This document shows, in pieces, positions 2,401 through 64,000 of a DNA stretch of 64,000 nucleotides (its first letter is position 1; each line of letters begins with the position of its first letter). The notes under the pieces are model-generated. The model saw only the letters and a program-made list of their open reading frames with translations. It was not told the DNA's origin and did not search any database. A program made the translations under genes and the position numbers. The DNA comes from an uncultured Prolixibacteraceae bacterium (GTDB lineage: Bacteria > Bacteroidota > Bacteroidia > Bacteroidales > FEN-979): contig CAZSDU010000001.1 in assembly GCA_964605775.1 (NCBI GenBank), forward strand, positions 102,741 to 166,740. The letters run 5' to 3'.

Positions 2401-2472
<72 letters not shown>

Positions 2473-26499: not shown

Positions 26500-26506
26500 A
26501 CCAGCC

Positions 26507-45100: not shown

Positions 45101-46168
45101 GCCGCAGGGCAGGGCCGGCCAGGAAGGGTCCACCGTCTCGGTGATGTTCACGCTACCCAGGAAAACCCAAGCCATGGGGTTCAGTTCTTCACCCTGATGC
45201 AACCTCCATAATTGATAGCCTATCAAGCTTTGTTCGCCGGAAGTGAGGTCCAAAGGCCCGCCAGTACCTGATACCAGGGCACGGATCATGAAATTCCCTG
45301 CTGCCGGTACCCAGGGTTGGTTTCCCGTGACTGCTTTAAAATAACTGCGGTATTGAGGGAAAGTCACATCAATGGCCAGTCCGGCTGCATTGGGAGCATT
45401 TCCACCCTGTATCATGGCAATGAAGAAGTTCCCTGCTGCAAGGCTTACCGGAGACGGAAAGGTAAAATCTATCCATCCCAAAGCGGCGGGGATCACATCA
45501 AAGGGACCCGCGATCACATTTCCGGGTGTACCTCCCGTTCCGTTTCCATCCAGGATGATCACCTGGAAAGGGACCAGGGGATTACTTCCCGGTGGATAGT
45601 TGGAGGCGTTTCCAATATTGATTTTACATCCTTTAACCAGAACAGGATATCCCACTGGCGTAAATTTCACGGCATTCATGTTTCCCGCCTGGGACCATAC
45701 GGTAAAATTATCCTGCAGGCCATCGTCATAGATCAGTTCGTATGTTCCTTCGGGTTGGCCCCAGGAGAGATAGACTCTCTGGTTGGCCGTATCCATCACT
45801 GCCGATAATAGCGGTGAAGGGTTGGGGGTTTCCCATAAAGTAATATTGAGGGTAATGATGTTCCCGGACTGAAAGGTTACGGGATCAGAAGTGAAAGGGT
45901 CAAAGCCGGCTTTTGATGCGTTCACCGGAAAAACGCCTAAGGGTTGAATGTTAAGACTGTAAACTCCGGCGGTAACCGAGTACGTGGAAACACCGTTGAC
46001 CGTTATCCTGGCACCGATCACGGGATGTCCGGTGGTGGCATGGGTTACGGTACCCACCAGGGTGGCGGAGGACAGAAATCCGGTTTGCGAAAAAAGAGGA
46101 AAACCAGTTAAAAACAAAAGTCCCCAAAAAAGGATCTGAAAATAATATTTTATTTGTGATGGATTCAT
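42197..46168 (-). CDS. large T9SS adhesin-like protein 3 (headless paralog with cleaved-adhesin/choice-of-anchor-J-like tail)
   Basis: Clear homology to the core of genes 1/2 (ELIYDDG..AGNMNAVKFTP, KYTGNRWS, GKCWT); tail QGFEGEEFPPPGW...QDEWLI...YYVKVSTDQGNSW; VYPNP CTD; start ATG at 46168. Confidence 0.82.
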   Translation of the reverse strand: MNPSQIKYYFQILFWGLLFLTGFPLFSQTGFLSSATLVGTVTHATTGHPVIGARITVNGVSTYSVTAGVYSLNIQPLGVFPVNASKAGFDPFTSDPVTFQSGNIITLNITLWETPNPSPLLSAVMDTANQRVYLSWGQPEGTYELIYDDGLQDNFTVWSQAGNMNAVKFTPVGYPVLVKGCKINIGNASNYPPGSNPLVPFQVIILDGNGTGGTPGNVIAGPFDVIPAALGWIDFTFPSPVSLAAGNFFIAMIQGGNAPNAAGLAIDVTFPQYRSYFKAVTGNQPWVPAAGNFMIRALVSGTGGPLDLTSGEQSLIGYQLWRLHQGEELNPMAWVFLGSVNITETVDPSWPALPCGPHRWCVKTGYTGNRWSEPTFSNVLGKCWTAPVNINLSLSCAAADPEGTLITLTNQVYQDTVYQGVCNPSGQVVFPGVWKGSYEVKAMKFGYLTYSGFCSVNTPLSLDIILLQIKSPPTNLVVDSVSLHAVWDEPFYSLPLLQENFNSGDFLSGGWVREGGINWRISMTAGHPAPSAFFSWSPPVPNYEQSLTSRMVEGQNSPIMTLQYEINLDNYSTAALNQMAIEIYDGISWHTLKVWTNAGGSIPWTTDVIDISAYSNTHFNIRFRAFGQDSYQINGWYIDNILITASESAHLLAPCIFGYNFYLDNTLLALVNDNHYTIDGSLVRYDSTYQACVRAIYTSGYSEQVCAALTSHFLWPPTELNAEILENTVYLSWHEPTMPSDSGPVMPEGIKGYNIYRNGSFLIYLPGNDNLSFYDVNLEPGNYSYTVDALYDLTTYGHPGQEDHSMPAGPVSVMIHYGRLLPFNEPWNQGSFTYNEWRFNGQQGNWVISQEEGNPLPSAVFTGSPNHQLYSFALESPVLDATPDNCAKIWMDFDLKLLDKTANGNEKLTAEVFYNNTWHQKAEFSNSGNIEWITQHIDISVVKGKGFRFRFIAGGNNSDNISTWLVDNIAVYAVCLPPTDPYGEAWGDDIHLSWSPPQCSGGGNILQQGFEGEEFPPPGWSQITHNAGASWTHTGISPPIGVHSGNYSAGLYWDYNHQDEWLIAKNVYVGGNLSFWSLAYQGSAHDDHYYVKVSTDQGNSWDVLMDLSALPPFPGPGGYNQWQHPYMINMSSYLGDVVDLAWHATDNGGQGLWYYWGIDDCTLGGQKLEFTTPPILYDVYRQDPAGGVYVKANSQPLTDTAFIDFRLPYGLYRYYIQTTGNTCNEATASDTIEVDVITSLGKQYDGPLTVYPNPARDQIRVKSTMPMNRILLINVLGLKVADFSLNAVLETIIPLENLSEGHYLMKVFTTGNAGMYCIPMIKY

Positions 46169-46268
46169 ACGCTCCCTACAAAAATACAAAAAGCAGGGTT
46201 GAAAAAGACTTTTTCATGCTTTTAAGGTTCTTTTTTTTCGGAAAAACTTGCCAGAATGAAAATTTTTA

Positions 46269-50809: not shown

Positions 50810-51940
50810 TTACTGATAAAATGCTGAGATTTTTTTGCAGATAAAATTTATCTGAGCGTTTTTGAGTTTATAGAAGAAAGGTAATCTTAGCAGGCAGTTG
50901 CTGAACGTATCGGTATTGGGTAAAGCCCGGCCACTATATTTTTCTGAGAGATAGGGACTGGAATGCAAGGGAAAATAATGAAAAACGGCATGGATTCCAT
51001 GATTTTTCAAATCGTTAAGTAAACGATCTCTTTCTTCCCGGGTATGTGTCACCATATAGAACATATTGCCGTTGACCGTAGCAAACTCAGGAATCACGGG
51101 ACATTTCAGATATCCTTTTGCTTCCAGCGGCTGTAGTCTTTCATAATACCGCCACCAGATTTTCCGGCGATGCCGCTGGATGTCATCAAGCCGGGACAGT
51201 TGTGTATATAGAATTGCGGCAGTGGTATCTGAGGGCAGAAAAGAAGATCCGATATCGACCCAACGGTATTGATCGATTTCACCCCGGTAGAAAGCAGCGC
51301 GGTTAGTACCCTTTTCCCAGATGATCTCTGCTCTTCCTGCATCTTCCTGACGATTGATTACGAGCATCCCGCCTTCTCCTGAAATGATATTTTTTGTTTC
51401 ATGAAAAGAAAAGGTACTGTAATCGCCAAAGGAACCCAGGGGACGTCCGCGATAATAGGAATCAAAAGCATGAGCGGCATCTTCAATGACTTTAATGCCA
51501 TGTTCCCCGGCAATCGCCATGATCCTGTCCATTTTACAGGCCAATCCGCTGTAGTGAACCACCACGATCAGCTTCGTCCTTGGCGTGATCAGCCTGGAAA
51601 TCTCTTCGGGATCTATATTGGGGACATCTGAGAGTGTATCCGCAAAAACCAAGCTGGCTCCCCTCAGCAAAAAAGCATTGGCGGTGGACATAAAGGTGAA
51701 GGAAGGAAGAATGATCTCATCCCCGGGTCCGATCCCGGAAAGCAGGGCCGACATCTCGAGGGCATCGGTACAGGAAGTGGTCAGCAGTACCTTGCGGAAT
51801 CCAAAACGATTTTCCATTACACGATGACATTTTTTGGTGTAAGGTCCGTTACCGGATATGTTGCCGGAAATGGCGGCGAGCGCCAAATTCTTGATGGTCA
51901 ATAGGGGAAAATAAGGCTTATTGAAAGGGATATGGCTCAT
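50810..51940 (-). CDS. wecE: dTDP-4-amino-4,6-dideoxygalactose transaminase (WecE/RffA family)
   Basis: TSCTDALEM, PSFTFMSTANAF, EDAAH, SFHETKNIISGEGG, EKGTNR. Confidence 0.9.
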   Translation of the reverse strand: MSHIPFNKPYFPLLTIKNLALAAISGNISGNGPYTKKCHRVMENRFGFRKVLLTTSCTDALEMSALLSGIGPGDEIILPSFTFMSTANAFLLRGASLVFADTLSDVPNIDPEEISRLITPRTKLIVVVHYSGLACKMDRIMAIAGEHGIKVIEDAAHAFDSYYRGRPLGSFGDYSTFSFHETKNIISGEGGMLVINRQEDAGRAEIIWEKGTNRAAFYRGEIDQYRWVDIGSSFLPSDTTAAILYTQLSRLDDIQRHRRKIWWRYYERLQPLEAKGYLKCPVIPEFATVNGNMFYMVTHTREERDRLLNDLKNHGIHAVFHYFPLHSSPYLSEKYSGRALPNTDTFSNCLLRLPFFYKLKNAQINFICKKISAFYQ

Positions 51941-51968
51941 AAATAGCGAAATAGTGAAGGAGCGAAAT
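51941..51968. repeat. degenerate 8-nt array immediately upstream of the wecE start
   Basis: aaatagcg aaatagtg aaggagcg aaat. Confidence 0.6.
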
Positions 51969-52032
51969 TATGAAATTCAGCTGGAATTATTTTACTTTTG
52001 TCCGCAATTTTGACTTTCATTTCCTTCATCCT

Positions 52033-53352
52033 TTGGCAAAAAGAACTTACCTCCGCGATATCCTTAGCATTTTAAGCAGTAACCTAATGGCTGCATGCTG
52101 CAACCTGGCCATAGGAATCATCTTGTCGAGGCTGTTGGGTGCAGCCGGTTATGGTTTATATTCCGCCATTATCGTGGTACCCATGATCGTGATCGGATTT
52201 ACCCAGTTAGGTATCAAACGGTCCACGATTTACCACATTGGAAATAAGCTACTGCCGGAAGATCATATTGTATCTGCTCTTTTCATTCTGCTGATTTATA
52301 CCAGTGTTTTGAGTATTCTCATCTGCGGACTGGTCTATTTTTTTTCCGCCACCCAACCCTTCGACCCCCTGATCGTAGTGTTTGTGCTGCTCACCATTCC
52401 GCTTCTTTTGACGAATGTATATGCCGGAGGCGTTTTCCTGGGGAAAGATGAGATCAGGCGGGCAAGTATCGTCAATGCCGGGCCTACCATCCTTATCCTG
52501 GTCTTCACCATTATTTTTGTATGGGTATTTCCCCTTTCGGTACTGGGAGCATTTTTAGCCATTCTGGTGGCAAATATCCTGATGTGTTTTTATAATTACC
52601 ATGTTTTCTTCAGGGTGTATCAGTACAGAATTACCTGGAAATACCATGAATCGCTCATTAAAAGCATGATCAAGCTGGGGTTGGTTAATGCCATGGCTGT
52701 TTTTATCATGCAGCTCAATTATCGCATGGATATCCTGATGCTGAAAAAACTCTCTTCGCTGGAGGAAGTTGGGTTTTATTCCCTTGGGATGCAGATCGCC
52801 GAGCAGCTTTGGCATATTCCCTATGCCATCGAAACGATCATTCTCAGCCGTTCTGCCAATTCCAACAACGATCAGCAAATCAACCGTACGGTAGCCTCAA
52901 TTTTCAGGGTTTCCCTGATCCTTGGCGTAACGGGAGGAATACTGATTTTTTTCATTGCTCCGTTGTTAATTCCTCTGATTTTTGGGAAAGCATTCATCCC
53001 AAGCGTCACCATGATCCAGGTGGTGCTTCCCGGGGTACTTTTCCTCGTAGGATTCCGAATCCTGAACAGCAGGTTGACGGGAATGGGGAAACCTCAGGTT
53101 GCGATATATGCTTTTCTTCCGGCCCTGGTCATCAATTTCATTGCCAATCTGTTCCTGATACCCCGCTTTGGCGGAATAGGGGCAGCCTGGGCCACCAACA
53201 TCAGTTACGGGATTGGCTCCCTTGCGTTTATCCTGGTCTATTCCCGTCTGTTGAAAATACCTTTGACCGAAATTTTAAGGATCAGGAAAAGTGATTTTTA
53301 TTTCATCCGTGATTTTAAAAAGATTCTTTATGAAAAACGAAGATCTAAGTAA
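52033..53352 (+). CDS. Wzx-type polysaccharide flippase
   Basis: About 12 TM; SRLLGAAGYGLY, YRMDILML..EEVGFYSLG, IPRFGGIGAAWAT; probable TTG start at 52033, downstream of TACTTTTG at 51993-52000. Confidence 0.88.
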   Translation: MAKRTYLRDILSILSSNLMAACCNLAIGIILSRLLGAAGYGLYSAIIVVPMIVIGFTQLGIKRSTIYHIGNKLLPEDHIVSALFILLIYTSVLSILICGLVYFFSATQPFDPLIVVFVLLTIPLLLTNVYAGGVFLGKDEIRRASIVNAGPTILILVFTIIFVWVFPLSVLGAFLAILVANILMCFYNYHVFFRVYQYRITWKYHESLIKSMIKLGLVNAMAVFIMQLNYRMDILMLKKLSSLEEVGFYSLGMQIAEQLWHIPYAIETIILSRSANSNNDQQINRTVASIFRVSLILGVTGGILIFFIAPLLIPLIFGKAFIPSVTMIQVVLPGVLFLVGFRILNSRLTGMGKPQVAIYAFLPALVINFIANLFLIPRFGGIGAAWATNISYGIGSLAFILVYSRLLKIPLTEILRIRKSDFYFIRDFKKILYEKRRSK

Positions 53353-54454
53353 GATACCCATTTTTTTTATCTTCGGACGACCCCGTTCCGGGACTACCTT
53401 ACTCACCACCCTTTTCAATGCGCATCCGAACATACGGATTGCACCGGAATTCCCGATCATGCTTTTCCTTTACCAAAAGTTCAGAAAAGTAAAAAATTGG
53501 GACGAAGCGACCATCAGGTCATTTATTGAACATGCCTATTACAATTCCAAATTCAATTACAGAACCCTTGAAAATCTGAAGATCGACAAGGAAAACCTCC
53601 TGGGGGACCTCATGAAATACCAGGGAAAAAATGATGTCAGCGTCTTTCTGAAAAGCATTAATTACCATGCGTTTTCGCTGTTTAAAAAAGAAGAGACGCT
53701 TTGGATTGGGGATAAAAACCCGATTTATTCCATCAATGCCCACCGCTTCCGCAAAATCTTCCCTGAAGCAAAATTCATCTGCATCATAAGGGATTACCGG
53801 GATAATTTTATCTCTATCCGCAAATTGGCGGAAAAGCAGGTGGAAGTTGAAGCCCCTGTATTGGATCTCCAGGTTGCCAGATGGCGTTTTTTTACCCGTC
53901 TGTTTTTTCAATGTCAAAGGAAATACCCGGATAAATATTATATCCTCCGTTATGAAGACCTGGTGACGGATCAGGAGAAAACCTTTCGTTCACTCTGTGA
54001 ATTCCTCGGCATTGTCTATGATCCGGCGGTTTTTGATTTTCACCGGAAAAAAGAAGAAACCCTGAATACTTATGGGAATGTGATCTGGGAGAAATTCCAT
54101 GAAAACCTGCTGAAGCCGATCCATACCGGAGGCATGAATACCTGGCAGAATGAGCTTACTCCAGCCCAGGTCAGGATGGCTGATCAGATCGCCGGAAAAT
54201 ATGCGGATCAGTTGGGATATCCGAGAGGAAACAAGCGTTTAAATGTTTGGTTGTTTCTGAAATCCAGACCCATGGTGGCCTACAATTATATCCTGCTGAA
54301 CCTGATGGTCTTTGGCACTTATCTGCCCTACAAAGCAAGTCGTTGGTGGTTTTTTAAATCCCTGATATTGCTTAAGATCTATATGCGATTCTTTGGCAGG
54401 AAAAAAGTTCCTATTCCCCATCCAGATGGTCCGCAACCAGCCTCCGGTCGTTGA
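53330..54454 (+). CDS. PAPS-dependent sulfotransferase
   Basis: 5'-PSB motif GRPRSGTTLL, GDKNP, 3'-PB IRDYRDNFIS, RYEDLV; start ATG at 53330. Confidence 0.88.
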   Translation: MKNEDLSKIPIFFIFGRPRSGTTLLTTLFNAHPNIRIAPEFPIMLFLYQKFRKVKNWDEATIRSFIEHAYYNSKFNYRTLENLKIDKENLLGDLMKYQGKNDVSVFLKSINYHAFSLFKKEETLWIGDKNPIYSINAHRFRKIFPEAKFICIIRDYRDNFISIRKLAEKQVEVEAPVLDLQVARWRFFTRLFFQCQRKYPDKYYILRYEDLVTDQEKTFRSLCEFLGIVYDPAVFDFHRKKEETLNTYGNVIWEKFHENLLKPIHTGGMNTWQNELTPAQVRMADQIAGKYADQLGYPRGNKRLNVWLFLKSRPMVAYNYILLNLMVFGTYLPYKASRWWFFKSLILLKIYMRFFGRKKVPIPHPDGPQPASGR

Positions 54455-56117
54455 AATTACCGTTGACATAGCGCTGCATCAGTTTAAACCGCTGGAGTTT
54501 GCCACTGGATGTTTTGGGGATTTCATTTGATTTAACCAGGATCAGCTCATCCATGGTGATCCCCAGGTTACTGCGCAGCAAAGCCCTGAGTTTCCGAAAA
54601 ACCTCCCTGGATTTTTCCTGATGAAGACCAGCCACAAAAGCGATCACTTTATCCTGTCCTGTCTCCCTGGCAGTCGTTCCTCCGAAACAGATCTTCCCGA
54701 AGTCGATTTCTTCCAAGGTGCAAGCCATGGCTTCGAGATCGTTGGCGAAATAATTGCGTCCATACTTAAAAATGATGTCTTTATAGCGTCCGCTGATATA
54801 TAATCGACCTTTATAGAAGAACCCGATGTCACCGGTTCTGAGCCATTCCCCGCAGAATGCAGCTTCCGTGGCTGGCGGATTGTTGTAATACCCCCGGGTA
54901 ACGCCGGCGCCCCTCAACTGGATATGACCCGAATTCCCTTCCTGAACGGGCTGATCATGCTCATCCGTAATCCGTATTTCGACTTCATTCAGCGCAAGGC
55001 CGACCTCGGAGAGTATCCTTGCCTCCGGATCTGAGGGATCCACCTCCCTGACCCGGTTTTCCGTATCCAGCAACATTGCATCAAAGGCCTTTATCTCCGA
55101 TGGTTCCATCAGCGGAGTGAAAGAAACGGCAAGCGTAGCCTCTGCCATCCCATAAACCGGCATCATCGCCTCTGGTCTGAACCCATATGGCTGAAGCACT
55201 TCCATGAATTCCTTCATGATGGTCACGGAAATGGGTTCGGCCCCATTAAGCAGGGCTCTCATGGCAGAGAGATTCCAGTCGGCCACAGGATTTTTCCGAT
55301 GAAAATAGCGTAAAAATAAAGCCAGTCCAAAGTTGGTACAACCAGAAATCGAAACCTTATGCTGACTCATTAAATTCAGCCATAAACCCGGATTCATTAT
55401 AAAATCATACGTTTCAATAAGGTATTGATATGATAGTGAAAATAAAGGGGTCAGATGATATCCTATTAAACCCATGTCATGGAAAAGTGGCATCCAGTTA
55501 CCGATATGATCAGGAAAGTGTAAATCAAGACCGATGCGTATGGCTTCCATGTTCACTATCAGGTTGGCGTGAGTGAGCATAACTCCTTTAGGCTCCCCTG
55601 TGCTTCCGGATGAAAACTGAATAAAAGCCAGATCATCGGGATTCAGCTTAGGTTTGGGATAGACCGCCTTTACCTCCAGGTCATTCTTGTGCTTGATTGT
55701 TTCCCGAGGTAACACGTCGGTATCCAGAAAATCCAAACTTAAAAAAACATAGGGTCTTCCGAGTTGTTCAAAAATATTCAACAGTTTCACAACCGGAGGG
55801 TTATATCCTGAAAAGGTCATGGGGGGCTGAAGAATGGTTGGGATAAGCCCAAGCAGAAAACAACCCCAGAGCAATTCAACCGTTTCCCGGTTATTGTTAA
55901 GGGCAAGGATCACTTTATCCCCCTGCCTGAGCCCGAGGGCATACAATCCGCCCGCCAACTGTTCGGCTTCGGTCAGTAAATCTTTCACATTCTGAATTTC
56001 GAGTTCCCCGTTTTTATCGGAATAGGCGATAAACAAATCCGGGTGTTTACGAATGGCCCTGTAAAGAATATCCGGTAAGGTGAGTTCAGCTTTGTAGTAT
56101 GCAGTTGGTAAAGGCAT
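54411..56117 (-). CDS. fatty acyl-AMP ligase-like adenylation enzyme
   Basis: FIQFSSGSTGEPKGV, WMPLFHDMGLIG, PVYGMAEATL, LRTGDIGF, KTSSGKLQR. Confidence 0.88.
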   Translation of the reverse strand: MPLPTAYYKAELTLPDILYRAIRKHPDLFIAYSDKNGELEIQNVKDLLTEAEQLAGGLYALGLRQGDKVILALNNNRETVELLWGCFLLGLIPTILQPPMTFSGYNPPVVKLLNIFEQLGRPYVFLSLDFLDTDVLPRETIKHKNDLEVKAVYPKPKLNPDDLAFIQFSSGSTGEPKGVMLTHANLIVNMEAIRIGLDLHFPDHIGNWMPLFHDMGLIGYHLTPLFSLSYQYLIETYDFIMNPGLWLNLMSQHKVSISGCTNFGLALFLRYFHRKNPVADWNLSAMRALLNGAEPISVTIMKEFMEVLQPYGFRPEAMMPVYGMAEATLAVSFTPLMEPSEIKAFDAMLLDTENRVREVDPSDPEARILSEVGLALNEVEIRITDEHDQPVQEGNSGHIQLRGAGVTRGYYNNPPATEAAFCGEWLRTGDIGFFYKGRLYISGRYKDIIFKYGRNYFANDLEAMACTLEEIDFGKICFGGTTARETGQDKVIAFVAGLHQEKSREVFRKLRALLRSNLGITMDELILVKSNEIPKTSSGKLQRFKLMQRYVNGNFNDRRLVADHLDGE

Positions 56118-56144
56118 AAGAGATCATTCAAAAAGGATTGAACT

Positions 56145-56198
56145 GCAAAGTAACGGATTTTTGTCTATATCTCTTTCTCGGGAAAATTCTTACATTTG
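56145..56198. promoter_or_regulatory. divergent -7 elements for FAAL1 (minus, TACTTTTG 56145-56152) and ACP (plus, TACATTTG 56191-56198)
   Basis: Two TAnnTTTG matches in a 100-bp divergent spacer. Confidence 0.55.
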
Positions 56199-56217
56199 CG
56201 CCAAAATTTGATGCCCC

Positions 56218-56466
56218 ATGAAAATTGAAGATTTCATCGCCCAACTGGAAGAAGAATATGAAGATATCAAACCCGGGACGCTTAGCCCTGAAAGTGTCTT
56301 CAGGGAAATTTTTGAATGGAGTTCCATCAACGCGCTCATCTTGATTGCCCTGGTAAAAACCCAGTACGATGTAACGATCAATGCTGAAGATATTGCCAAA
56401 TCCGTGACCATAAAAGACCTTTTCGGAATTATCCAGGAAAGGGCCCAAAAAAATCAACCGGTTTAA
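56218..56466 (+). CDS. acyl carrier protein
   Basis: 82 aa, acidic; FEWSSINALILIA (Ser attachment site), KSVTIKDLF. Confidence 0.85.
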   Translation: MKIEDFIAQLEEEYEDIKPGTLSPESVFREIFEWSSINALILIALVKTQYDVTINAEDIAKSVTIKDLFGIIQERAQKNQPV

Positions 56467-58508
56467 TTTTCCACTATCAGTTTCCTCCCTTCTGCTGCCA
56501 TCTGAAGGATGGACATCTCTTCGAAAAAAAGATAGGGTGGCCATTCAAATCCAAAAGTGGTTTTCGTCAGTTCAGTCAGTTCAAGCGCTTTTAAAGAATC
56601 TATCCCATAAGCAGCCAGGCTGCTGTCGGGGTTTATGGGGTTACCCTCATTCAGTCTCAATGTCACCCAATGAATAAGAAATTGTTCCAGGTTAAGGGGC
56701 TGATCGCTGAAAAAATCTGTCTGAGGTATTTCTCTTTCCGGAAAAAAACGCTCGGAGATAATCTCTAATTGCCCCTTGCACAGTGCTTCCCGAACGGCCT
56801 TTCGCATGATTTTGCCACTTGAGGTTTTCAGGATTGCTCCGCTCCGGATCAGGGTAACGCGTGCAGGTTGGATTTCGAATTCCCGGGAAACGGCTGCCAG
56901 GATATCAGCCATGATCTTATCGTGATCCTGTGGCAGAATGGAACGGCGTAACTCTGCTACGAGGGCAAGTCTTTCTCTTCCGTTTTCTTCAACGGAAAAA
57001 GCGGCGGTACATGTTTTTCGTATGGCAGCATGGGCTTCTTCCACCACTGTTTCAATGTCCTGGGGATAAAAATTGCGGCCCCGGATAATGATCAGATCTT
57101 TCAGTCGCCCCGTAATAAAAAGCTCTCCTTCATGGAGAAAACCCAGATCCCCGGTACGCAGCCAAACCGGTTCATCCTGTCCGGCAGGGCTTGCCCGGAA
57201 AACTTCCTCAGTCAGCTGAGGATTGTTATAATATCCCAGGGCAATGGTGCTTCCACTCCCCCAGATTTCGCCTACACGGTCTTCCGCAAGGATTTTCTTT
57301 GTTTCCGGATCAACGATGAGAACAACAGTATCAAGGCTTGTTTTACCGTTTCCGGTAATGATCCTGACATCCTCTTTTCTATCCCCTTTGCTGATCTTTT
57401 TCACCTGGTGCTGCCCAAGGGCTGAAGCCTGTATTTCCAGGAAATGAGGAACACGGGTTACATCAGCCACGGTAAGGATAAGGGTGGATTCTGCCATACC
57501 ATAACCGGGAGTAAAAGTTTCAGGTCTCAGGCCGCAGGGGGAAAAGGCCTCCAGGAAAAGATCCAGCGTTTGTTTTCTTACAGGTTCGGCGCCACTGTAA
57601 AGCACCCGGAGAGAAGACAAATCCAGGTTTCTTTTCCGGGCCTCCTCAATTCTCCCGACACAATGAAGGTAGGCGAAATCCGGTTGACCGCTCAGTGTAG
57701 CGTGATGGCGTGTGATGGTTTGCAGAAGGCAGATGGGGTCGGCAATGAAATCGAGGGGAGAGATCAAAACGGAGGATGAGCCGGAAAAAACAGTTTCCAG
57801 GATCCCGAAAACCAATCCGAGGTCGTGAAACTGAGGCACCCAGTGCACGGCTACGTCTGCCGGGGTGATTTGAAATAAAATCTGCAGTGAGCGCAGGTTA
57901 TACATTATATTCCTGTGACTCACCATCACCCCTTTGGGTTGTCCTGTCGAACCGGAGGTATATTGCAGGAAGGCAAGGTCTTCAAATCCGGGTTCAAAGG
58001 AATGACTTTCCACGGCTGTTCCTGACAACCAGGAATTTGTATCCATCCATGTCAGGCTATTCAGCAGGGGATCAGAAGAAAAATTTCTTTCCATGGAGCG
58101 GATTATCGTTTCTGTGGTCAAAATAGAAACAGCGCTGCAATCAGAGATGATGGCATGTATCCTTTGCAGGGAACGATTTTTTTTGGGAGGATAGGCAGTC
58201 ACGGGAATGACGGAGGCATAGAGACATCCGAAAAAAGCCAGAATAAAATCCAGCCCGGCAGGGTAGAACAACAGTACTTTTTTCCCTTTCAGTCCATGTT
58301 CTGTAAGCTTCATGGCGATATTCCGGGCGGAGGCATCCAGCTCCCCGTAGGATATGGAAACTTCTTCTTCTTTCCCGTCCACCAGAAAAGAAAAGGCATT
58401 TTTTTCCGGATGTAAGAGGGAACGTTGCTTCACGACAGAAACAAGGCTTGCCTGATGGGGAACCAAATGAAGGTCTCCGGGGACGGGCGTTGGTGTGATC
58501 AAATCCAT
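56463..58508 (-). CDS. fatty acyl-AMP ligase fused to a C-terminal carrier domain (FAAL-ACP)
   Basis: FLQYTSGSTGQPKGV, WVPQFHDLGLV, PGYGMAESTL, LRTGDLGF, GRNFYPQDIE, KTSSGKIMR; C-terminal YGIDSLKALEL. Confidence 0.92.
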   Translation of the reverse strand: MDLITPTPVPGDLHLVPHQASLVSVVKQRSLLHPEKNAFSFLVDGKEEEVSISYGELDASARNIAMKLTEHGLKGKKVLLFYPAGLDFILAFFGCLYASVIPVTAYPPKKNRSLQRIHAIISDCSAVSILTTETIIRSMERNFSSDPLLNSLTWMDTNSWLSGTAVESHSFEPGFEDLAFLQYTSGSTGQPKGVMVSHRNIMYNLRSLQILFQITPADVAVHWVPQFHDLGLVFGILETVFSGSSSVLISPLDFIADPICLLQTITRHHATLSGQPDFAYLHCVGRIEEARKRNLDLSSLRVLYSGAEPVRKQTLDLFLEAFSPCGLRPETFTPGYGMAESTLILTVADVTRVPHFLEIQASALGQHQVKKISKGDRKEDVRIITGNGKTSLDTVVLIVDPETKKILAEDRVGEIWGSGSTIALGYYNNPQLTEEVFRASPAGQDEPVWLRTGDLGFLHEGELFITGRLKDLIIIRGRNFYPQDIETVVEEAHAAIRKTCTAAFSVEENGRERLALVAELRRSILPQDHDKIMADILAAVSREFEIQPARVTLIRSGAILKTSSGKIMRKAVREALCKGQLEIISERFFPEREIPQTDFFSDQPLNLEQFLIHWVTLRLNEGNPINPDSSLAAYGIDSLKALELTELTKTTFGFEWPPYLFFEEMSILQMAAEGRKLIVEN

Positions 58509-58515
58509 TTCGGGG

Positions 58516-58561
58516 CAAAATTAGAAAAAATCGGATTTGATAAAAAAAAACAGTATTTTTG
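58516..58561. promoter_or_regulatory. divergent -7 elements for FAAL-ACP (minus, TAATTTTG 58516-58523) and KAS III (plus, TATTTTTG 58554-58561)
   Basis: Two TAnnTTTG matches in a 92-bp divergent spacer. Confidence 0.55.
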
Positions 58562-58600
58562 CTTAGTTCATCATTCCGGAAGAATCAACAGAAGCTCATA

Positions 58601-59674
58601 ATGGCAATTTTCGAAGTATCTGATGTACGCATTGCCGGTATTTCGGCATGTGTTCCCAAGAAAATCTCCTCCAATCATAATTATAACTGGATTACGCAAA
58701 AGGAGCGCGATCTTCTGATCAAGACCATAGGTGTGGAAACCCGTCATAAGGCTGCAGCGGGGCAAGCCTGTTCCGATCTCTGCCTTCAGGCTGCTGAACA
58801 ATTGCTTGAACGCCTGGGATGGGAACGGCAGGAGATCAATCTGCTGATTTTCGTTTCCCAGTCGAGGGATTATATCATTCCCTCCACTTCTGCTATTCTT
58901 CAAGACAGGTTAAACCTATCCACGCATTGTATGACCCTGGATATTAATCTCGGATGTTCCGGTTATGTTTACGGACTTTCCGTGATCACCAGCCTGATGA
59001 AGACCACCGGTCTCCGGAAAGCATTGTTGCTGGTCGGGGATATTTCCACCCTCACTTCTTCCTACCGTGATAAAAGCACCTTCCCACTTTTCGGTGATGC
59101 CGGAACGGCAACCGCACTGGAGTTGAAAGAGGGAGCTCCTGGGATGCAATTCAACCTGCAGACCGATGGAAGCGGATATGAAGCCATCATCATTTATGAC
59201 GGGGGCGTCAGGAATTTTCCCAGTAAAAAATCATTTATTTTTAAAAAGTACGGGGAAGGAATTTATCGAAACCGCTTACAGGTAGCGTTGAACGGGATTG
59301 AGGTATTCAATTTCTCACTCCGTGAGGTCGTTCCCAACATCAAGGCTACCCTGAGCCATTTCAACCGTAGTCTGGACGAGTTTGACTATCTGGTATTCCA
59401 TCAGGCCAACCGTCTGATCAATGAGACCATCCGGAAGATGCTTAAAGTTGTCCCTGAGAAAGTCCCCTATTCGCTGAAAGATTTCGGTAACACTAGTTGC
59501 TCTTCTATCCCTCTTACCATCGTTACCCAGATCAGGAATGAGGTGGAAAACAAACCCAAGAAACTCCTGTTTTCAGCTTTCGGAATCGGTTTGTCGTGGG
59601 GAAGCGTGCTTCTGGAAACCGATGGCATAATGGTTCCGGAACTTACGGAACAGGAGTATATTCCTAACGTCTGA
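58601..59674 (+). CDS. ketoacyl-ACP synthase III (FabH-like)
   Basis: Cys-His-Asn triad: [19 protein letters not shown]; LFGDAGTAT; start ATG at 58601. Confidence 0.92.
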
Positions 59675-59679
59675 CAAGT

Positions 59680-60414
59680 ATGAATGCATTTGATCTGAGC
59701 GGAAAAACAATCCTGGTCACCGGCGCCTCTTCCGGGCTCGGAAGGCAAACAGCCATCAGTGTTTCCCAGCACGGCGCCAGGCTGGTCATCACTGGAAGGA
59801 ATGTAGAAAGGCTGAATGAAACTTTTATGTCGCTAGAGGGTGAAGGACATCTTCAAATGACCGCTGATCTCACGGTTCAGGCAGATATCGACCAACTGGT
59901 GGCCAAGCTCCCTCCTCTTCATGGACTGGTTCACAGCACCGGTATATCCGATATGACACCGGCAAGATTCATTACCAGTGAAACCATTTCGAGAACCTTC
60001 CGCATCAGTTTTGATGCAATCGTCCTTTTAACTGCTGCTATTCTGGGAAAGAAAAAACTGGTCAAGGGGAATAGCTCCATTGTGTTTATTTCTTCCATTT
60101 CCACGCGATATCCTTTCATTGGCGGGGCCATGTATGTCAGCGCCAAAGCGGCCCTTGAAGGCTTTTCAAGGGTTCTCGCCATGGAACTCAATCCGCGGGG
60201 AACCCGGGTGAACTGCATTGCTCCTGCCCTGGTCAGAACCCCCATGATGGATGAAACGGCTGAAAACTATTCTGAAGAAGTCATCAGGCAGATTGAAGCG
60301 CGTCAATTACTTGGCCTCGGAGAACCTATTGATGTGGCCAATGCCATCATATATTTCCTTTCGGATGCATCAAAGTGGGTGACGGCCGGTCATCTGATTT
60401 TAGGAGGAGGTTAG
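59680..60414 (+). CDS. SDR oxidoreductase (FabG-like)
   Basis: [24 protein letters not shown]. Confidence 0.9.
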
Positions 60415-60415
60415 C

Positions 60416-61360
60416 ATGAACAATAGTAAAAACCCTGAGTATTCCATTGTGGTACCGGTTTTCAACAGCAGTGAATCGCTGGAGGAACTGTTCCGGAGGA
60501 CTGCCCAGACCATGCACAAACTGTCAAAGTCATTTGAGGTGATCTTTATCGACGACGATAGTCAGGACGACAGTTGGAGCAAGCTGGAAACCATCCGTAA
60601 CACCCATCCGGAAAAAGTTACGGCCGTACGCCTTGCCCGCAATTTCGGCCAGCACAATGCCACCATTTGCGGCATTGCACAAGCGAATGGGGAATATATC
60701 ATCACCATGGATGATGATCTTCAAAACCCACCGGAGGAAATGGCCAAACTGATCACCACCATGGATGCCGGCCAGGCCGATCTGGTCTATGGTATCTATG
60801 AGAAAAAGAAACATTCCATGGCACGCAACCTGGGCAGCAAAGCGATGAAGGTAACTTCCAGGAGACTGTTCCGCAACAAAGGCAAAGGGTCTTCTTTCCG
60901 CCTGATGAAAGCCTCACTGGGGAAATGCCTGCTTAAACATCAGATAAACTTTATTTATATTGATGAATTGTTTAACTGGTACACCAGCCATATTGGATTT
61001 GTGATGGTTGACCATCAGAAAAGACCCTACCAGAAATCAACCTATAGTTCCCGTTCCCTCTTTTCCATGTTCTCCAACCTGGTAATTTATTATACGGCCA
61101 TCCCATTGCGTATCATGGTTTACGGAGGGTTCATTTCCGCCCTGCTGAGTTTTATTTTCGGGCTGGTATTCATCTACCGGAAAATCGTCCATGACGTACC
61201 CCTGGGGTTTACCGCCCTGATCGTCGCCATCCTTTTTTCCACCAGTATTATCCTTTTATCTCTGGGTGTCATCGGAGAATACCTGAGCCGTATCTATACG
61301 GTTCAAAATAACAAACCCCCTTTTTCCATTAAAACAATCCTCCGCCATGAAGTTCTATAA
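60416..61360 (+). CDS. GT2 polyprenyl-phosphate glycosyltransferase (GtrB/ArnC-like)
   Basis: SIVVPVFN, IDDDSQD, LARNFGQHNA, TMDDDLQNPP, two C-terminal TM helices, GVIGEYLSRIY. Confidence 0.9.
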   Translation: MNNSKNPEYSIVVPVFNSSESLEELFRRTAQTMHKLSKSFEVIFIDDDSQDDSWSKLETIRNTHPEKVTAVRLARNFGQHNATICGIAQANGEYIITMDDDLQNPPEEMAKLITTMDAGQADLVYGIYEKKKHSMARNLGSKAMKVTSRRLFRNKGKGSSFRLMKASLGKCLLKHQINFIYIDELFNWYTSHIGFVMVDHQKRPYQKSTYSSRSLFSMFSNLVIYYTAIPLRIMVYGGFISALLSFIFGLVFIYRKIVHDVPLGFTALIVAILFSTSIILLSLGVIGEYLSRIYTVQNNKPPFSIKTILRHEVL

Positions 61361-62051
61361 ATACGGTATTACCCTGGAAAGACTGAAAGAAGAAGACATT
61401 GAGCTGGTCAGGCAATGGCGGAATTCAGACCCGGTAAGGCTGAACATGAAATACCGTGAAATCATCACGCCTGAGCAACAAAAAGCCTGGTTCCGTTCCA
61501 TCGACAACCTGAATTTCCACTATGTGATCATTCAGTACCAGGGTGAAAAAATCGGATTGCTCAATGACAAGAACATTGACTGGCAGAACCTGACCTCTGA
61601 AACCGGGATCTTTATCGGAAGGCCTGAATTTTACCATACTTTTGTCCCCTACCTGGTATCCATTGCCGGAATAGAAACCTTTTTTTATCTGATCGGTTGG
61701 AAAAAACAATATGCCCATATCCTGCGTAGCAATGCGAATGCCATCCAATATAATCTCGGGCTTGGATACAGGCTTTGCGAAGGTCAGGAAGGCATCGAAC
61801 ACCAGCGGTATGAGATTACCCGTGAAAGTTTTGAGCAGACAGCCGGAAAAATCAGGAAAATGGTCAGATCTGTTGCCGGAAATGACATTAGAAGCAGCAT
61901 GCTGTTTGAACCTCCCGATTATCAAAGCGGCATTGCACAGAAGTTCGAAGCTTTATTTCTGAACAATCATCTGCCTCATCAGCGCAAGGAGACTGCTGAA
62001 GGAGTATGGTATATGGAATGGGATGAAAATGTGACCCCTCAGCCTCACTAA
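61347..62051 (+). CDS. GNAT N-acyltransferase (PseH/RimJ-like)
   Basis: LERLKEEDIELVRQWRN, EQQKAWF, NANAIQYNLGLGY. Confidence 0.8.
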   Translation: MKFYKYGITLERLKEEDIELVRQWRNSDPVRLNMKYREIITPEQQKAWFRSIDNLNFHYVIIQYQGEKIGLLNDKNIDWQNLTSETGIFIGRPEFYHTFVPYLVSIAGIETFFYLIGWKKQYAHILRSNANAIQYNLGLGYRLCEGQEGIEHQRYEITRESFEQTAGKIRKMVRSVAGNDIRSSMLFEPPDYQSGIAQKFEALFLNNHLPHQRKETAEGVWYMEWDENVTPQPH

Positions 62052-62063
62052 TGCTCTCCGGCA

Positions 62064-63515
62064 ATGCTTTTCAATTCGATCGGATACCTGCTTTTTCTTC
62101 CTGTCACGGTTATCGTTTATTATTTTTTACCCTCTCGTTGGCGCCGGATCTTCCTCCTGGCCGCCAGTTATATTTTTTACCTCTTCTGGAAGGTTGAATT
62201 CGTTCTGGTATTGATGGCTGCCACCCTGGTTTCGTATTTTGCCTCCAGGCAAATGGGGCTGGTCCAACGCAAGAAAAAAAGGTTGAAGTACCTGGTTTTC
62301 GTTCTGGTTATAAACCTTGGAATGCTGTTCGTATTCAAATACCTTTTCTTTTTTACTGATCTCCTGAGCGAGATGGCCGGGATTGCCGGGTTCAGGATAA
62401 GTATTCCGATGATGAATATAATCCTGCCTGTCGGGATATCGTTTTATACTTTCCAGACCATTGGTTATGCCGTTGATGTTTACCGGGGGGTGATCAGACC
62501 TGAGCAAAATGCCGGGGTGTATGCCTTATTCGTATCTTTTTTCCCCCTGGTGCTGGCTGGTCCTATTGAAAGGGGGAGGAATCTGATTCCCCAGCTTCAT
62601 CTGAAACACAACTTTGATCCTCAACTGATCAGTTCAGGCCTGAGGCTGATCTTATGGGGAATGTTCAAGAAAATTGTCATCGCCGACCGGCTTTCCACCA
62701 TTGTTCAGCCGGTTTTTATGGAACCGGGATATTTTCATGGGATTGAGATCGTATTTGCCATTGTTTTAAAGATCATGCAGGTCTATGCTGATTTTTCAGG
62801 GTATACTGATATCGCCATCGGTTCGGCCAGGTTGCTGGGGTTCAGGCTGAGTCCCAATTTCAAGCGTCCCTTTGCCGCTCAATCCATCGCTGCTTTCTGG
62901 AGCCGATGGCATATCTCCCTGACTTCCTGGTTGAGGGATTATGTGTATTTCTCCCTGCCTTTCATGTTTCGTGGTAAAACCGTAGCATGGCGAGTTCACC
63001 TGAACCTGCTCTTCACTTTCCTGTTGGTGGGATTCTGGCATGGTCCTTACTGGAATTTTCTTATTTTCGGATTATTGCATGGTTTATTTATCATTCTGGC
63101 CAATATTTTCAAGCCGATGATGATAAATTTCAACCGGATCAGCAGTCTGGACGGAAAACCCGGGCTGCTGAAAGGATTGAACATCACCTGTACATTCCTG
63201 CTGGTGTGTTCCACGGGGTTTTTCTTCGGATCCCATCCCCTCAACGAATCCCTGATCATGATCAGGAACCTCTTTGATTTCAGTCATAGCGGAACTGCTT
63301 TGAAACTGTTGTTCGCGAACAATGATCTGATCCTGGGAATCCTCTTGATTATTTTTATGCTTTGGTTTGAATACCTGATTGCCGTGAAATCCCTGGCTGT
63401 GAAATTTTTAAGCAAACCCATTGTCCTAAGGTATACCGCTTATCTTTTCATGCTGTTTTTCCTGCTTATATTCGGGATCTTTTCAAATCAGCAATTTTTC
63501 TATTTTCAATTTTAA
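62064..63515 (+). CDS. MBOAT O-acyltransferase (AlgI/DltB/PatA-like)
   Basis: LPVGISFYTFQ, FFPLVLAGPIER, DFSGYTDIAIG, FWSRWHISL..WLRDY, GFWHG catalytic His. Confidence 0.95.
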   Translation: MLFNSIGYLLFLPVTVIVYYFLPSRWRRIFLLAASYIFYLFWKVEFVLVLMAATLVSYFASRQMGLVQRKKKRLKYLVFVLVINLGMLFVFKYLFFFTDLLSEMAGIAGFRISIPMMNIILPVGISFYTFQTIGYAVDVYRGVIRPEQNAGVYALFVSFFPLVLAGPIERGRNLIPQLHLKHNFDPQLISSGLRLILWGMFKKIVIADRLSTIVQPVFMEPGYFHGIEIVFAIVLKIMQVYADFSGYTDIAIGSARLLGFRLSPNFKRPFAAQSIAAFWSRWHISLTSWLRDYVYFSLPFMFRGKTVAWRVHLNLLFTFLLVGFWHGPYWNFLIFGLLHGLFIILANIFKPMMINFNRISSLDGKPGLLKGLNITCTFLLVCSTGFFFGSHPLNESLIMIRNLFDFSHSGTALKLLFANNDLILGILLIIFMLWFEYLIAVKSLAVKFLSKPIVLRYTAYLFMLFFLLIFGIFSNQQFFYFQF

Positions 63516-63517
63516 CG

Positions 63518-64000
63518 ATGAAACAGAACAAGCGGTTTTTTGTCAAATTCTTGGTTTTCCTGATCCTAGTCATTGGTATTAATACCGTGTTGAATGCGGT
63601 ATATGATCAATGGATGTACTACAACCGGCTGAATCGCAACCAGGATCAGCAATTCCTGTCTTTTTCCGACACCCTGAAATACCTGATGATGGGTAATTCG
63701 CATAACATAGTGAACCCGGCTCTTCTGAAAAACAGCTACAGCTATGTCACCCCGAGGGAATTATACACCCATACCTACTATAAGCTGAAATATATCCTGG
63801 AAAACACAGATAAAAAGCCGGATTACCTGTTACTTTCAATCGATCCTTTGAATTTTAGTCCGAAAGCCGAAACCGATCTGACTTTTGACGGGTATTGGCG
63901 AAAGTATCTTGATTACTGCGAACTCATAAGTGTTTCCCATGATCTCTCCTACCTCCTGAATTGGGCTTCCGGACATTACTTTTCCTATGTCGGGAACTTT
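63518..64000 (+). CDS. SGNH/DltD-like membrane-anchored protein, truncated by window end
   Basis: Not in ORF track; manual translation MKQNKRFFVKFLVFLILVIGINTVL...YLMMGNSHNIVNP... stays open to 64000; N-terminal TM and G-x-S-H block directly after the MBOAT gene. Confidence 0.65.
   Translation, partial: MKQNKRFFVKFLVFLILVIGINTVLNAVYDQWMYYNRLNRNQDQQFLSFSDTLKYLMMGNSHNIVNPALLKNSYSYVTPRELYTHTYYKLKYILENTDKKPDYLLLSIDPLNFSPKAETDLTFDGYWRKYLDYCELISVSHDLSYLLNWASGHYFSYVGNF

Follow-up and report, generated by a model that had tools for sequence, protein, structure and literature searches.

The Arn pathway (ArnB, ArnA, ArnC, ArnD, ArnE/F and ArnT) modifies lipid A with 4-amino-4-deoxy-L-arabinose, and the GtrA/B/V, Pgf and PpgS systems are related to it. 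The N-acyl substituents of amino sugars influence the antigenicity and the physical properties of bacterial surfaces, and the biosynthesis of unusual acyl groups on these sugars has mostly been guessed from gene content. In this work, a gene locus that would combine both kinds of functions was studied. It begins at position 50810 of a 64,000-nucleotide stretch of DNA from an uncultured Prolixibacteraceae bacterium (contig CAZSDU010000001.1, positions 102,741 to 166,740); this whole stretch is referred to below as the window. It was judged moderately probable that the locus encodes a sugar decoration pathway on a lipid carrier, similar to the Arn, Gtr and Pgf pathways, in which an acyl group built for the purpose is placed on the sugar. 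Such a locus is a variant of known sugar-decoration pathways that is conserved in environmental Bacteroidales and is not a new kind of system.

The likeness to the Arn pathway extends over several predicted stages: a DegT-family transaminase would give a 4-amino sugar nucleotide, the amine would be N-acylated, an ArnC-type family 2 glycosyltransferase (GT2) would transfer the sugar to the lipid carrier, and the product would be flipped and transferred outside the cytoplasm by a GT-C-type glycosyltransferase. However, the transaminase is of the WecE type (6-deoxyhexose) and not ArnB, and the N-acyl group would come from a line of acyl carrier, 3-ketoacyl-acyl carrier protein synthase III (KAS III), short-chain dehydrogenase/reductase (SDR) and ligases together with a GNAT-family acyltransferase instead of a formyltransferase. 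The candidate flippase belongs to the MOP/Wzx family and not to ArnE/F or GtrA, the GT-C protein has tetratricopeptide (TPR) repeats and is not ArnT, and a sulfotransferase and a pair consisting of a membrane-bound O-acyltransferase (MBOAT) and its partner are added. Neither the ArnA formyltransferase nor the ArnD deformylase nor the ArnE/F flippase was found in the window locus or its relatives.

Another closely related system is an acyl-building cassette. For Flavobacterium psychrophilum, Cisar et al. proposed that wfpC-G, encoding an acyl carrier protein (ACP), two ketoacyl synthases, a reductase and a PglD-like transferase, provide the 3,5-dihydroxyhexanoyl group on the O-antigen sugar Qui2NAc4N (PMC6519341). 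Homologous cassettes in cultured bacteria were traced by a KAS III search of annotated plasmid and chromid records, and the window KAS III and SDR were 40-47.5% and 35-44% identical, respectively, to their counterparts in glycan loci of Parabacteroides, Rickettsia and Azospirillum. The capsule locus of Parabacteroides distasonis has genes for a flippase, several glycosyltransferases, an initiating sugar transferase and a polymerase of the EpsG type. Behind these lies a gene for a sugar N-acetyltransferase of the NeuD/PglB/VioB family, and then come those for a PP-binding protein, an ACP, an AMP-binding protein, KAS III (47.5% identity) and an SDR (38%). The Rickettsia peacockii plasmid carries genes for an ACP, KAS III, an SDR, an SRPBCC protein and an acetyltransferase, and in the pseudaminic-acid locus on the Azospirillum brasilense Sp7 plasmid, pseI and pseG are accompanied by genes for KAS III, a GNAT, an SRPBCC protein and two SDRs. 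An earlier annotation of the window made from its sequence (the original prediction) had linked ACP/KAS III/SDR sets to N-acylated amino sugars, and the presence of the same cassette beside N-acyltransferases in these three bacteria agrees with this link. By sequence comparison, the carrier/KAS III/SDR cassette is a recurring putative device for the N-acylation of amino sugars.

The window locus fits the definition of this cassette: it has a carrier, a KAS III with the Cys-His-Asn residues and a ketoreductase beside a candidate N-acyltransferase, which is a GNAT and not a PglD/NeuD protein. The cassettes elsewhere are located inside polysaccharide or nonulosonate loci, mostly with a left-handed beta-helix transferase of the PglD/NeuD type (a GNAT in Azospirillum), and lack an ArnC-like GT2, whereas the window locus joins GNAT and GT2 in one operon. 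It also contains two additional ligases of the fatty acyl-AMP ligase (FAAL) type, one with its own ACP, and the sulfotransferase, and relatives of the locus contain B12-binding radical-SAM genes. No paper describing this gene combination was found in the literature searched, in line with the original prediction, in which it was not recognised as a characterised pathway.

Conservation and boundaries of the locus

All twelve genes named in the original prediction were confirmed by the listing of open reading frames (ORFs) and by Pfam and NCBIfam matches; they are contiguous and in the predicted order at 50810-64000 (Table 1). The GT2 and GNAT reading frames overlap within the window, since the GNAT start precedes the GT2 stop. 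The genes beyond the window end, whose retrieval had been recommended, were obtained from a public contig, L001, which is a near-identical continuation of the window (8 mismatches in 11,937 bases). There, the 329-aa gene cut by the window end was found to continue to approximately 64507, followed by a DUF4890 gene and, on the opposite strand, a 681-aa gene for the GT-C/TPR protein. The cluster extends approximately 0.5 kb past the window end, or approximately 3 kb if the GT-C/TPR gene is counted in.

Relatives were found by a scan of species-representative genomes seeded with two KAS III peptide patterns from an alignment of the KAS III of the window and of the short contig encoding P0015, a relative of one of the ligases, and the sample therefore covers only this KAS III subfamily. 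Co-occurrence was determined by tblastn of the window proteins within 10 kb of KAS III in 25 loci (designated by L numbers); ORFs in these loci were called by a simple longest-ORF heuristic, and several gene absences were due to contig ends. It was found that 25 species-level genomes carried KAS III orthologues (45-85% identity) with the same gene set. Almost all of these were metagenome-assembled genomes (MAGs) of Bacteroidales with the labels Lentimicrobium, Prolixibacteraceae or Draconibacterium, and one each was labelled Omnitrophica and Henriciella. The order KAS III, SDR, GT2, GNAT was constant across the loci, whereas the flanking genes differed; therefore, the functional unit and not the chromosome neighbourhood was conserved. 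Because the same genes co-occurred around KAS III orthologues in 25 genomes with differing flanks, their grouping is far beyond chance, and the expectation that the genes would be found together in other genomes was borne out. According to the counts given in Table 1, the carrier, KAS III, SDR, GT2 and GNAT form the core, and the ligases, sulfotransferase, MBOAT pair, Wzx-type protein and transaminase are accessory. The ligases and the sulfotransferase are thus accessory modules upon a conserved short-acyl core.

Several loci showed peculiarities. Genes of the mobile-element type were found inside the operon: one gene with a KilA-N domain and one with a Bro-N domain between SDR and GT2 and an AAA_14/DUF4143 gene between the carrier and KAS III. 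With a KAS III of 75% identity, the locus copy in L028, a MAG labelled Omnitrophica WOR_2, is Bacteroidales-like; a binning error or a recent transfer may account for it. L037, from an alphaproteobacterial MAG of Henriciella pelagia, contains DegT, a small ORF, KAS III, GT2 and GNAT without an SDR, and this gene run continues with another GT2 and four paralogous PhyH-family dioxygenases.

The locus is flanked by housekeeping genes. Upstream of 50810, mtnA, an outer-membrane protein gene, serS and rplU/rpmA were identified, and the GT-C/TPR gene in L001 is followed by genes for an rRNA methyltransferase and an M20 peptidase. The unit is a free-standing locus of 12 to 15 genes and not part of a polysaccharide locus, because it contains a single cytoplasmic glycosyltransferase and lacks Wzy, an initiating transferase and a chain-length regulator. 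The original description as a glycan locus, in the sense of an O-antigen or capsule locus, therefore did not hold. An alternative would be that the genes are part of an ordinary Wzx/Wzy O-antigen or capsule locus for a short N-(3-hydroxybutanoyl) amino sugar, with the ligases, sulfotransferase and MBOAT as tailoring enzymes and the remaining genes elsewhere. WecE, GNAT and Wzx do resemble the trio of enterobacterial common antigen; moreover, Wzx is present in the window, and the KAS III cassette does occur in the classical P. distasonis capsule locus. However, neither the window locus nor any of its 25 relatives contains Wzy/EpsG, an initiating phosphoglycosyl transferase or a chain-length regulator, and the only glycosyltransferase, placed between housekeeping flanks, is of the polyprenyl-phosphate type. 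For the window locus itself, a Wzx/Wzy system was excluded because the polymerase, the initiating transferase and further glycosyltransferases are missing, and the broader version with the rest of the genes elsewhere is considered unlikely.

Two other interpretations of the locus were rejected. A horizontally acquired island was discarded since the GC content of 0.44-0.48 resembles that of the remaining window, and a natural-product cluster of the polyketide synthase (PKS) or nonribosomal peptide synthetase (NRPS) type was discarded since there is no megasynthase and the core holds sugar enzymes.

Putative acyl-building enzymes and the sulfotransferase

The two carrier domains of the original prediction were both located: one is fused to a ligase in the FAAL-ACP didomain protein, and the second is the 82-aa ORF, which is encoded on the plus strand and flanked by the two ligase genes of the minus strand. 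The PP-binding score of the small carrier was 20.3 bits against a cut-off of 20.8, and mycobacterial AcpM was matched in the PDB with an E value of 3.6e-4. The Ser in the motif EW[N/S/D]SINAL was conserved across 13 orthologues. Orthologues 51-81% identical to the carrier were present in 20 loci, always on the KAS III strand and upstream of KAS III, to which they were directly adjacent in several loci. The carrier also shared 37% identity with the PP-binding protein encoded in the capsule cassette of P. distasonis. A 138-aa ORF on the minus strand was rejected as a gene because it had no Pfam match and is antisense to the conserved carrier. Since it is longer than the real carrier gene, longest-ORF callers choose wrongly here, as in several related loci.

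The KAS III, whose probable start is the Met at approximately 58601, contains the Cys (GCSG), His (HQAN) and Asn (GNTS) residues according to its alignment to 4EFI (220 bits). The SDR comes after KAS III in all but one of the 25 loci.

Both ligases matched FAAL crystal structures over nearly their full length. Their NCBIfam and PDB matches include FadD32, FadD28, EcFAAL, LpFAAL and the FAAL of the PCC 7002 PKS, and both scored below the curated cut-offs. The 568-aa ligase reached 348 bits with the fatty acyl-AMP ligase model NF006624 (cut-off 600), and its top three PDB matches were NRPS adenylation domains, i.e., 6ULW/6ULX, which we take to be a keto-acid-selecting NRPS adenylation domain, and McyG, followed by the E. 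coli FAAL 3PBK. The best PDB match of the FAAL-ACP was 7R7E-G, the FAAL domain of the Picosynechococcus PCC 7002 PKS (446 bits), and the Legionella FAAL gave 361 bits. In the region of the insertion after YGxAE, both ligases aligned with small gaps to the FAAL structures, which alone made up the comparison set, and approximately 50-60 residues separate YGMAE from the following conserved strand in both. Carriers accompany the ligases, one fused in the FAAL-ACP and one encoded by the 82-aa gene between the ligases. Both ligases resemble FAALs more than acyl-CoA ligases, and the FAAL-ACP is, to judge from its domains, a self-loading starter module.

From the FAALs, the original prediction had deduced longer fatty acids taken from the free pool. 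This was not established, as the ligases are found in only 17 (568-aa ligase) and 11 (FAAL-ACP) of the 25 loci, the 568-aa ligase is nearer to 6ULW/6ULX and McyG than to the E. coli FAAL, and published FAAL substrates range from C4 to C18 (PMC11837247).

Among 1.84 billion representatives, the nearest relatives of the FAAL-ACP were PKS/NRPS loading modules and one stand-alone protein, P0015 (47% identity). The short contig encoding P0015 also contains a divergent KAS III (72% identity) and, on the opposite strand, a small carrier (66% identity). A scan of genome contigs seeded with the FAAL-ACP alone revealed no relative, and a scan of metagenome contigs gave three weak ligase matches that were unrelated.

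One to three B12-binding radical-SAM genes, which are absent from the window, were found beside the carrier in 12 of the related loci. They resemble class B methylases and scored below all NCBIfam cut-offs; L038 and L023 additionally hold a PhpK-like radical-SAM gene. Their presence suggests that the acyl chain of the relatives is C-methylated or modified by other radical reactions.

The sulfotransferase, with a probable start at Met 53330, has the loop GRPRSGTTL for 3'-phosphoadenosine 5'-phosphosulfate (PAPS), an invariant Glu aligned with the GEE of tyrosylprotein sulfotransferase (TPST) and the motif RDYRDN. When used as a single sequence, it matched 4GOX of the olefin synthase (OLS; E 3.3e-14) and 4GBM of CurM (E 8e-9) in the PDB, whereas its family profile scored higher with TPST (99 bits) than with the CurM (73) and OLS (68) sulfotransferases. 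Among the 11 loci with this gene, five encode proteins of approximately 72% identity and six encode proteins of 34-39% identity, and the FAAL-ACP is absent from 5 of the 11. The sulfotransferase is an accessory module.

These data bear on a second alternative, i.e., that the FAAL-ACP, KAS III, SDR and sulfotransferase form a dissociated line like that of Ols or CurM (FAAL-ACP-KS-AT-KR-ACP-ST-TE), giving a 3-sulfooxyacyl thioester on the carrier. The sulfate would either be kept in the final N-acyl group or act as a leaving group to produce an unsaturated chain. The FAAL-ACP didomain, the order of ketosynthase and ketoreductase and the broad sulfotransferase family are shared with these systems, and the order of the chemistry (FAAL-ACP, KS, KR, ST) equals that of Ols (PMC3903477). 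The FAAL domain that is the best structural match of the FAAL-ACP comes from Picosynechococcus PCC 7002, an organism whose type I PKS is the olefin synthase (PMC11730487), and the single-sequence matches of the sulfotransferase are to activating sulfotransferases. However, FAAL structures are few, so that a top PDB match is little informative about the pathway. The window proteins are discrete, KAS III replaces the type I KS-AT, and an alpha/beta-hydrolase or thioesterase gene was found neither in the window locus nor in any of its 25 relatives. The sulfotransferase is nearer to TPST by profile, is missing from more than half of the loci and often occurs without the FAAL-ACP, and the context is sugar-modifying and not hydrocarbon-forming. 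An Ols/CurM-like line is consequently regarded as improbable.

Sugar-side enzymes, probable O-acylation and the proposed pathway

The transaminase exceeded the NCBIfam cut-offs for dTDP-4-amino-4,6-dideoxygalactose transaminase (NF008687, 500 bits against 375) and for ECA_wecE (TIGR02379, 443.8 bits against 434.85) and remained below that of the ArnB model (214 bits against 631). The Wzx-type protein has many transmembrane (TM) segments; its public gene call starts at approximately 52087 and gives 421 aa in L001. The GT2 aligned over its full length with ArnC (NF007986, residues 9-311 with 8-314 of 316) at 168 bits with a cut-off of 529, scored 123 bits with the PgfS model and has two C-terminal TM helices, as in ArnC. 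Therefore, by alignment, the GT2 shares the ArnC architecture but is no ArnC equivalog.

The GNAT scored 52.6 bits with the PseH model TIGR03585, below the cut-off of 93. Its closest annotated relative among plasmids was pseH (29% identity), and PseH enzymes were its sole named relatives. PseH N-acylates a nucleotide-linked 4-amino-4,6-dideoxy sugar, i.e., the same class of sugar as the predicted product of the WecE-like enzyme, and the GNAT is a candidate for the N-acyltransferase of the amino sugar.

In the GT-C/TPR protein, 9-11 TM helices, with a DDE motif following TM1, precede TPR repeats at the C terminus. When its family was scanned member by member with Pfam, PMT_2 was matched in 5 of 8 members (best E 1.8e-8), and the copy of the window genome gave a weak match of 21.4 bits, below the cut-off of 26.1; it is not ArnT. 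In a search of the family profile against the PDB, the matches were dominated by TPR proteins, with nothing informative on the membrane domain. The family adjoins the locus in the window genome and in 8 of the related loci at varying positions: five times it is upstream of the 568-aa ligase, and otherwise it comes downstream of the MBOAT pair. The protein is a candidate for the final transferase of the pathway. In addition, an RmlA-like sugar-1-phosphate nucleotidyltransferase gene located approximately 25 kb upstream of the locus could supply its dTDP-sugar precursor. It is flanked by genes for an MMPL/RND-type transporter and a polyprenyl synthetase.

The only NCBIfam match of the MBOAT was DltB (TIGR04091, residues 9-388), with 156 bits against a cut-off of 375. 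The gene of its 329-aa partner ends approximately 507 bases past the window end; the protein carries a TM helix near its N terminus (residues 5-30) and residues that are invariant in 10 homologues, namely, G59/S61/H62 (G-x-S-H) and D297/H298/N300 (D-H-x-N). In PDB searches, DltD was matched neither by the single sequence nor by a profile of 10 sequences, no Pfam family was assigned, and no significant similarity to AlgJ, PatB or DltD was detected. The profile gave only one weak PDB match (E 0.014), presumably the SGNH domain of S. aureus OatA, and spurious matches to prolidase. The label SGNH/DltD-like in the original prediction is thus supported by motifs only.

The order of an MBOAT and then a single-pass membrane protein in which Ser, His and Asp residues are invariant is also characteristic of AlgI/AlgJ-AlgX, PatA/PatB and DltB/DltD. 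In a third alternative, the window genes would act like Dlt, with the 568-aa ligase as DltA, the 82-aa carrier as DltC, the MBOAT as DltB and the SGNH-like protein as DltD, and acyl groups would be passed to a surface polymer. This system would be a carrier-fed route of fatty-acyl O-acylation. All four types of components are present, DltB is the only named match of the MBOAT, and the partner is membrane-anchored with invariant residues of the Ser/His/Asp type. However, the DltB score was below its cut-off, the partner had no detectable similarity to DltD, and the ligase is of the FAAL type and not of the DltA type. The MBOAT was found in 13 loci, and its partner was detected in 11, each time beside it. 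The pair occurred without a nearby ligase or carrier in L026 and L027 and, as a two-gene unit of MBOAT and membrane protein, in P. distasonis (L010) and Chondrinema litorale (L011). Conversely, L020, L025 and L029 have a ligase and carrier without MBOAT within 10 kb, and L031 and L036 have a carrier with neither ligase nor MBOAT. Because the MBOAT pair and the ligase and carrier occur independently, the carrier goes with KAS III and has a homologue in the KAS III cassette of P. distasonis, and the MBOAT and its partner do not qualify as DltB and DltD, a Dlt-like system is unlikely. Since the pair occurs without ligase and carrier, O-acylation of the AlgI/PatA type is likelier than a carrier-fed fatty-acyl route. 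Two acyl-transfer routes had been predicted; the second is supported by the MBOAT pair, but it is probably O-acylation of this type, independent of the carriers. The MBOAT gene of Chondrinema was found to be interrupted by an IS630 element.

From the domain assignments and the co-occurrence described above, the following pathway of sugar decoration may be inferred. The WecE-like transaminase would form an NDP-4-amino-4,6-dideoxyhexose. One or both acyl-AMP ligases would load a free carboxylic acid, and the chain would be built on the dedicated 82-aa carrier; the FAAL-ACP would charge its own ACP domain, and the 568-aa ligase would probably charge the free carrier. KAS III would join the starter with one malonyl unit, and reduction by the SDR would give a 3-hydroxyacyl thioester. 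In relatives with only the carrier, KAS III and SDR, the product would be a 3-hydroxybutanoyl group, in those with B12 radical-SAM genes, a methylated chain, and the window type with its PKS-style FAAL-ACP may begin from a longer acid. The PseH-like GNAT would put the acyl group on the 4-amino group, the ArnC-like GT2 would transfer the N-acyl sugar to polyprenyl phosphate, the Wzx-type protein would flip the lipid-linked sugar, and the PMT_2-type GT-C protein with periplasmic TPR repeats would pass it to a periplasmic acceptor (a protein, lipopolysaccharide (LPS) or another glycan). The sulfotransferase would add sulfate either to a hydroxyl group of the sugar or to the acyl chain at its 3-hydroxyl, and this would occur on the cytoplasmic side because PAPS is cytoplasmic. 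Outside the cytoplasm, the MBOAT and its SGNH-like partner would O-acylate, probably O-acetylate, the product. Sulfation and O-acylation would be optional steps. The lipidated and sulfated surface product that had been predicted is thus retained in outline as an acylated, possibly sulfated surface sugar, with the sulfotransferase as an accessory found in 11 of the 25 loci.

Several observations weigh against the proposed pathway. Within 10 kb of KAS III, DegT was found in only 5 and Wzx in only 7 of the loci; therefore, the identity of the amino sugar and the role of the flippase rest on loci of the window type. Flipping of a polyprenyl-monophosphate sugar by a MOP/Wzx protein is atypical, as ArnEF and GtrA normally do so. 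The GT2, GNAT, MBOAT and both ligases scored below the curated NCBIfam cut-offs, and none is an equivalog of a named enzyme. L026 and L027 hold KAS III, SDR and GT2 with no carrier, GNAT or ligase within 10 kb, and the GT-C gene adjoins only 8 loci, besides a C-terminal fragment at the contig edge of L014. The relatives are all MAGs.

Long-chain acylation is plausible. A more specific form of it, in which the amino sugar made by loci of the window type receives a 3-hydroxy fatty acid of medium or long chain length, in a manner resembling lipid A, and is sulfated, and the TPR-bearing GT-C protein transfers the product to periplasmic or outer-membrane proteins or to LPS, is given only a small chance. 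In one version, the sulfotransferase would act on the 3-hydroxyacyl-carrier, as in CurM/Ols. If true, the surface of Bacteroidota cells would undergo a 'glyco-lipidation' that has not been described before.

Other features of the window and significance of the locus

Positions of the genes of the locus and of the other features are collected in Table 1.

Table 1. Features of the window and of related contigs; positions without a prefix are those of the window, and the last column gives the number of the 25 related loci with the feature
Feature	Position	Strand	Match or description	Loci of 25
WecE-like PLP aminotransferase, DegT family	50810-51940	-	Pfam DegT_DnrJ_EryC1 E 1.2e-85	5
Wzx-type flippase, MOP family	51970-53352	+	Polysacc_synt_3 E 4.6e-15, Polysacc_synt E 1.4e-10	7
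PAPS-type sulfotransferase, TPST/CurM-ST clade	53291-54454	+	Sulfotransfer_3 E 1.9e-31	11
Stand-alone FAAL-like acyl-AMP ligase	54411-56117	-	568 aa, without carrier domain; AMP-binding E 1.8e-53	17
Free-standing acyl carrier protein	56218-56466	+	82 aa; PP-binding E 6.5e-4	20
FAAL-ACP didomain	56463-58508	-	681 aa; AMP-binding E 1.2e-60, PP-binding residues 622-672	11
KAS III, FabH-like condensing enzyme	58559-59674	+	ACP_syn_III and ACP_syn_III_C	25
SDR, FabG-like 3-oxoacyl reductase	59680-60414	+	adh_short E 7e-41, KR E 7.2e-13	24
ArnC/GtrB-like GT2, polyprenyl-phosphate glycosyltransferase	60416-61360	+	Glycos_transf_2 E 7.9e-28	25
PseH-like GNAT	61347-62051	+	Acetyltransf_3 E 7.4e-6	19
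MBOAT-family membrane O-acyltransferase	62064-63515	+	MBOAT E 4e-21	13
SGNH-like MBOAT partner	63518-64000	+	N-terminal 160 of 329 aa, ORF cut at window end; full length at L001:11455-12444	11
GT-C/TPR protein	L001:12876-14921, equivalent to ~64939-66984	-	681 aa	8
Rejected ORF	56128-56544	-	138 aa	
B12-binding radical-SAM genes	L019:2675-4156; L020:6100-9160; L023:1319-4472; L036:5425-9753; others			12
Mobile-element-type insertions	L019:11952-12575; L024:5024-5893; L022:6686-7912			
MBOAT and membrane protein unit, Parabacteroides distasonis	L010:14001-16372			
MBOAT and membrane protein unit, Chondrinema litorale	L011:14001-17585			
MMPL/RND-type transporter	23244-25595			
RmlA-like nucleotidyltransferase	25639-26499			
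Polyprenyl synthetase	26468-27481			
Giant T9SS cargo protein	29543-35095	-	1850 aa; CarboxypepD_reg, Por_Secre_tail, Laminin_G_3	
Giant T9SS cargo protein	35400-40850	-	1816 aa; CarboxypepD_reg, Por_Secre_tail	
Third related cargo protein	42197-46189	-		
tRNA gene	2401-2472	+	65 bits	

Elsewhere in the window, two adjacent giant genes for cargo of the type IX secretion system (T9SS) were identified. The encoded proteins share two of the domains listed in Table 1, and Laminin_G_3 was found only in the 1850-aa protein. They are 81% identical overall; a core of approximately 1,100 residues is virtually 100% identical, and the N- and C-terminal parts have diverged. This pattern suggests that tandem duplication or gene conversion took place recently, and a third related cargo gene is located nearby. 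The single tRNA gene was the sole Rfam match in the window.

The locus family is a compact, self-contained test case for the biosynthesis of acyl groups on amino sugars and is found in at least 25 species of Bacteroidales from wastewater, sediment and freshwater. In it, a putative acyl-building line is coupled directly to sugar transfer via a lipid carrier, with sulfation as an option, and the pattern of core and accessory genes yields a clear prediction for every enzyme. If the acyl group is short, the family would still reveal the workings of the carrier/KAS III/SDR cassette that is widespread in capsule and flagellin-glycan loci; if it is a fatty acid, the cell surface would carry a new amphiphilic decoration.

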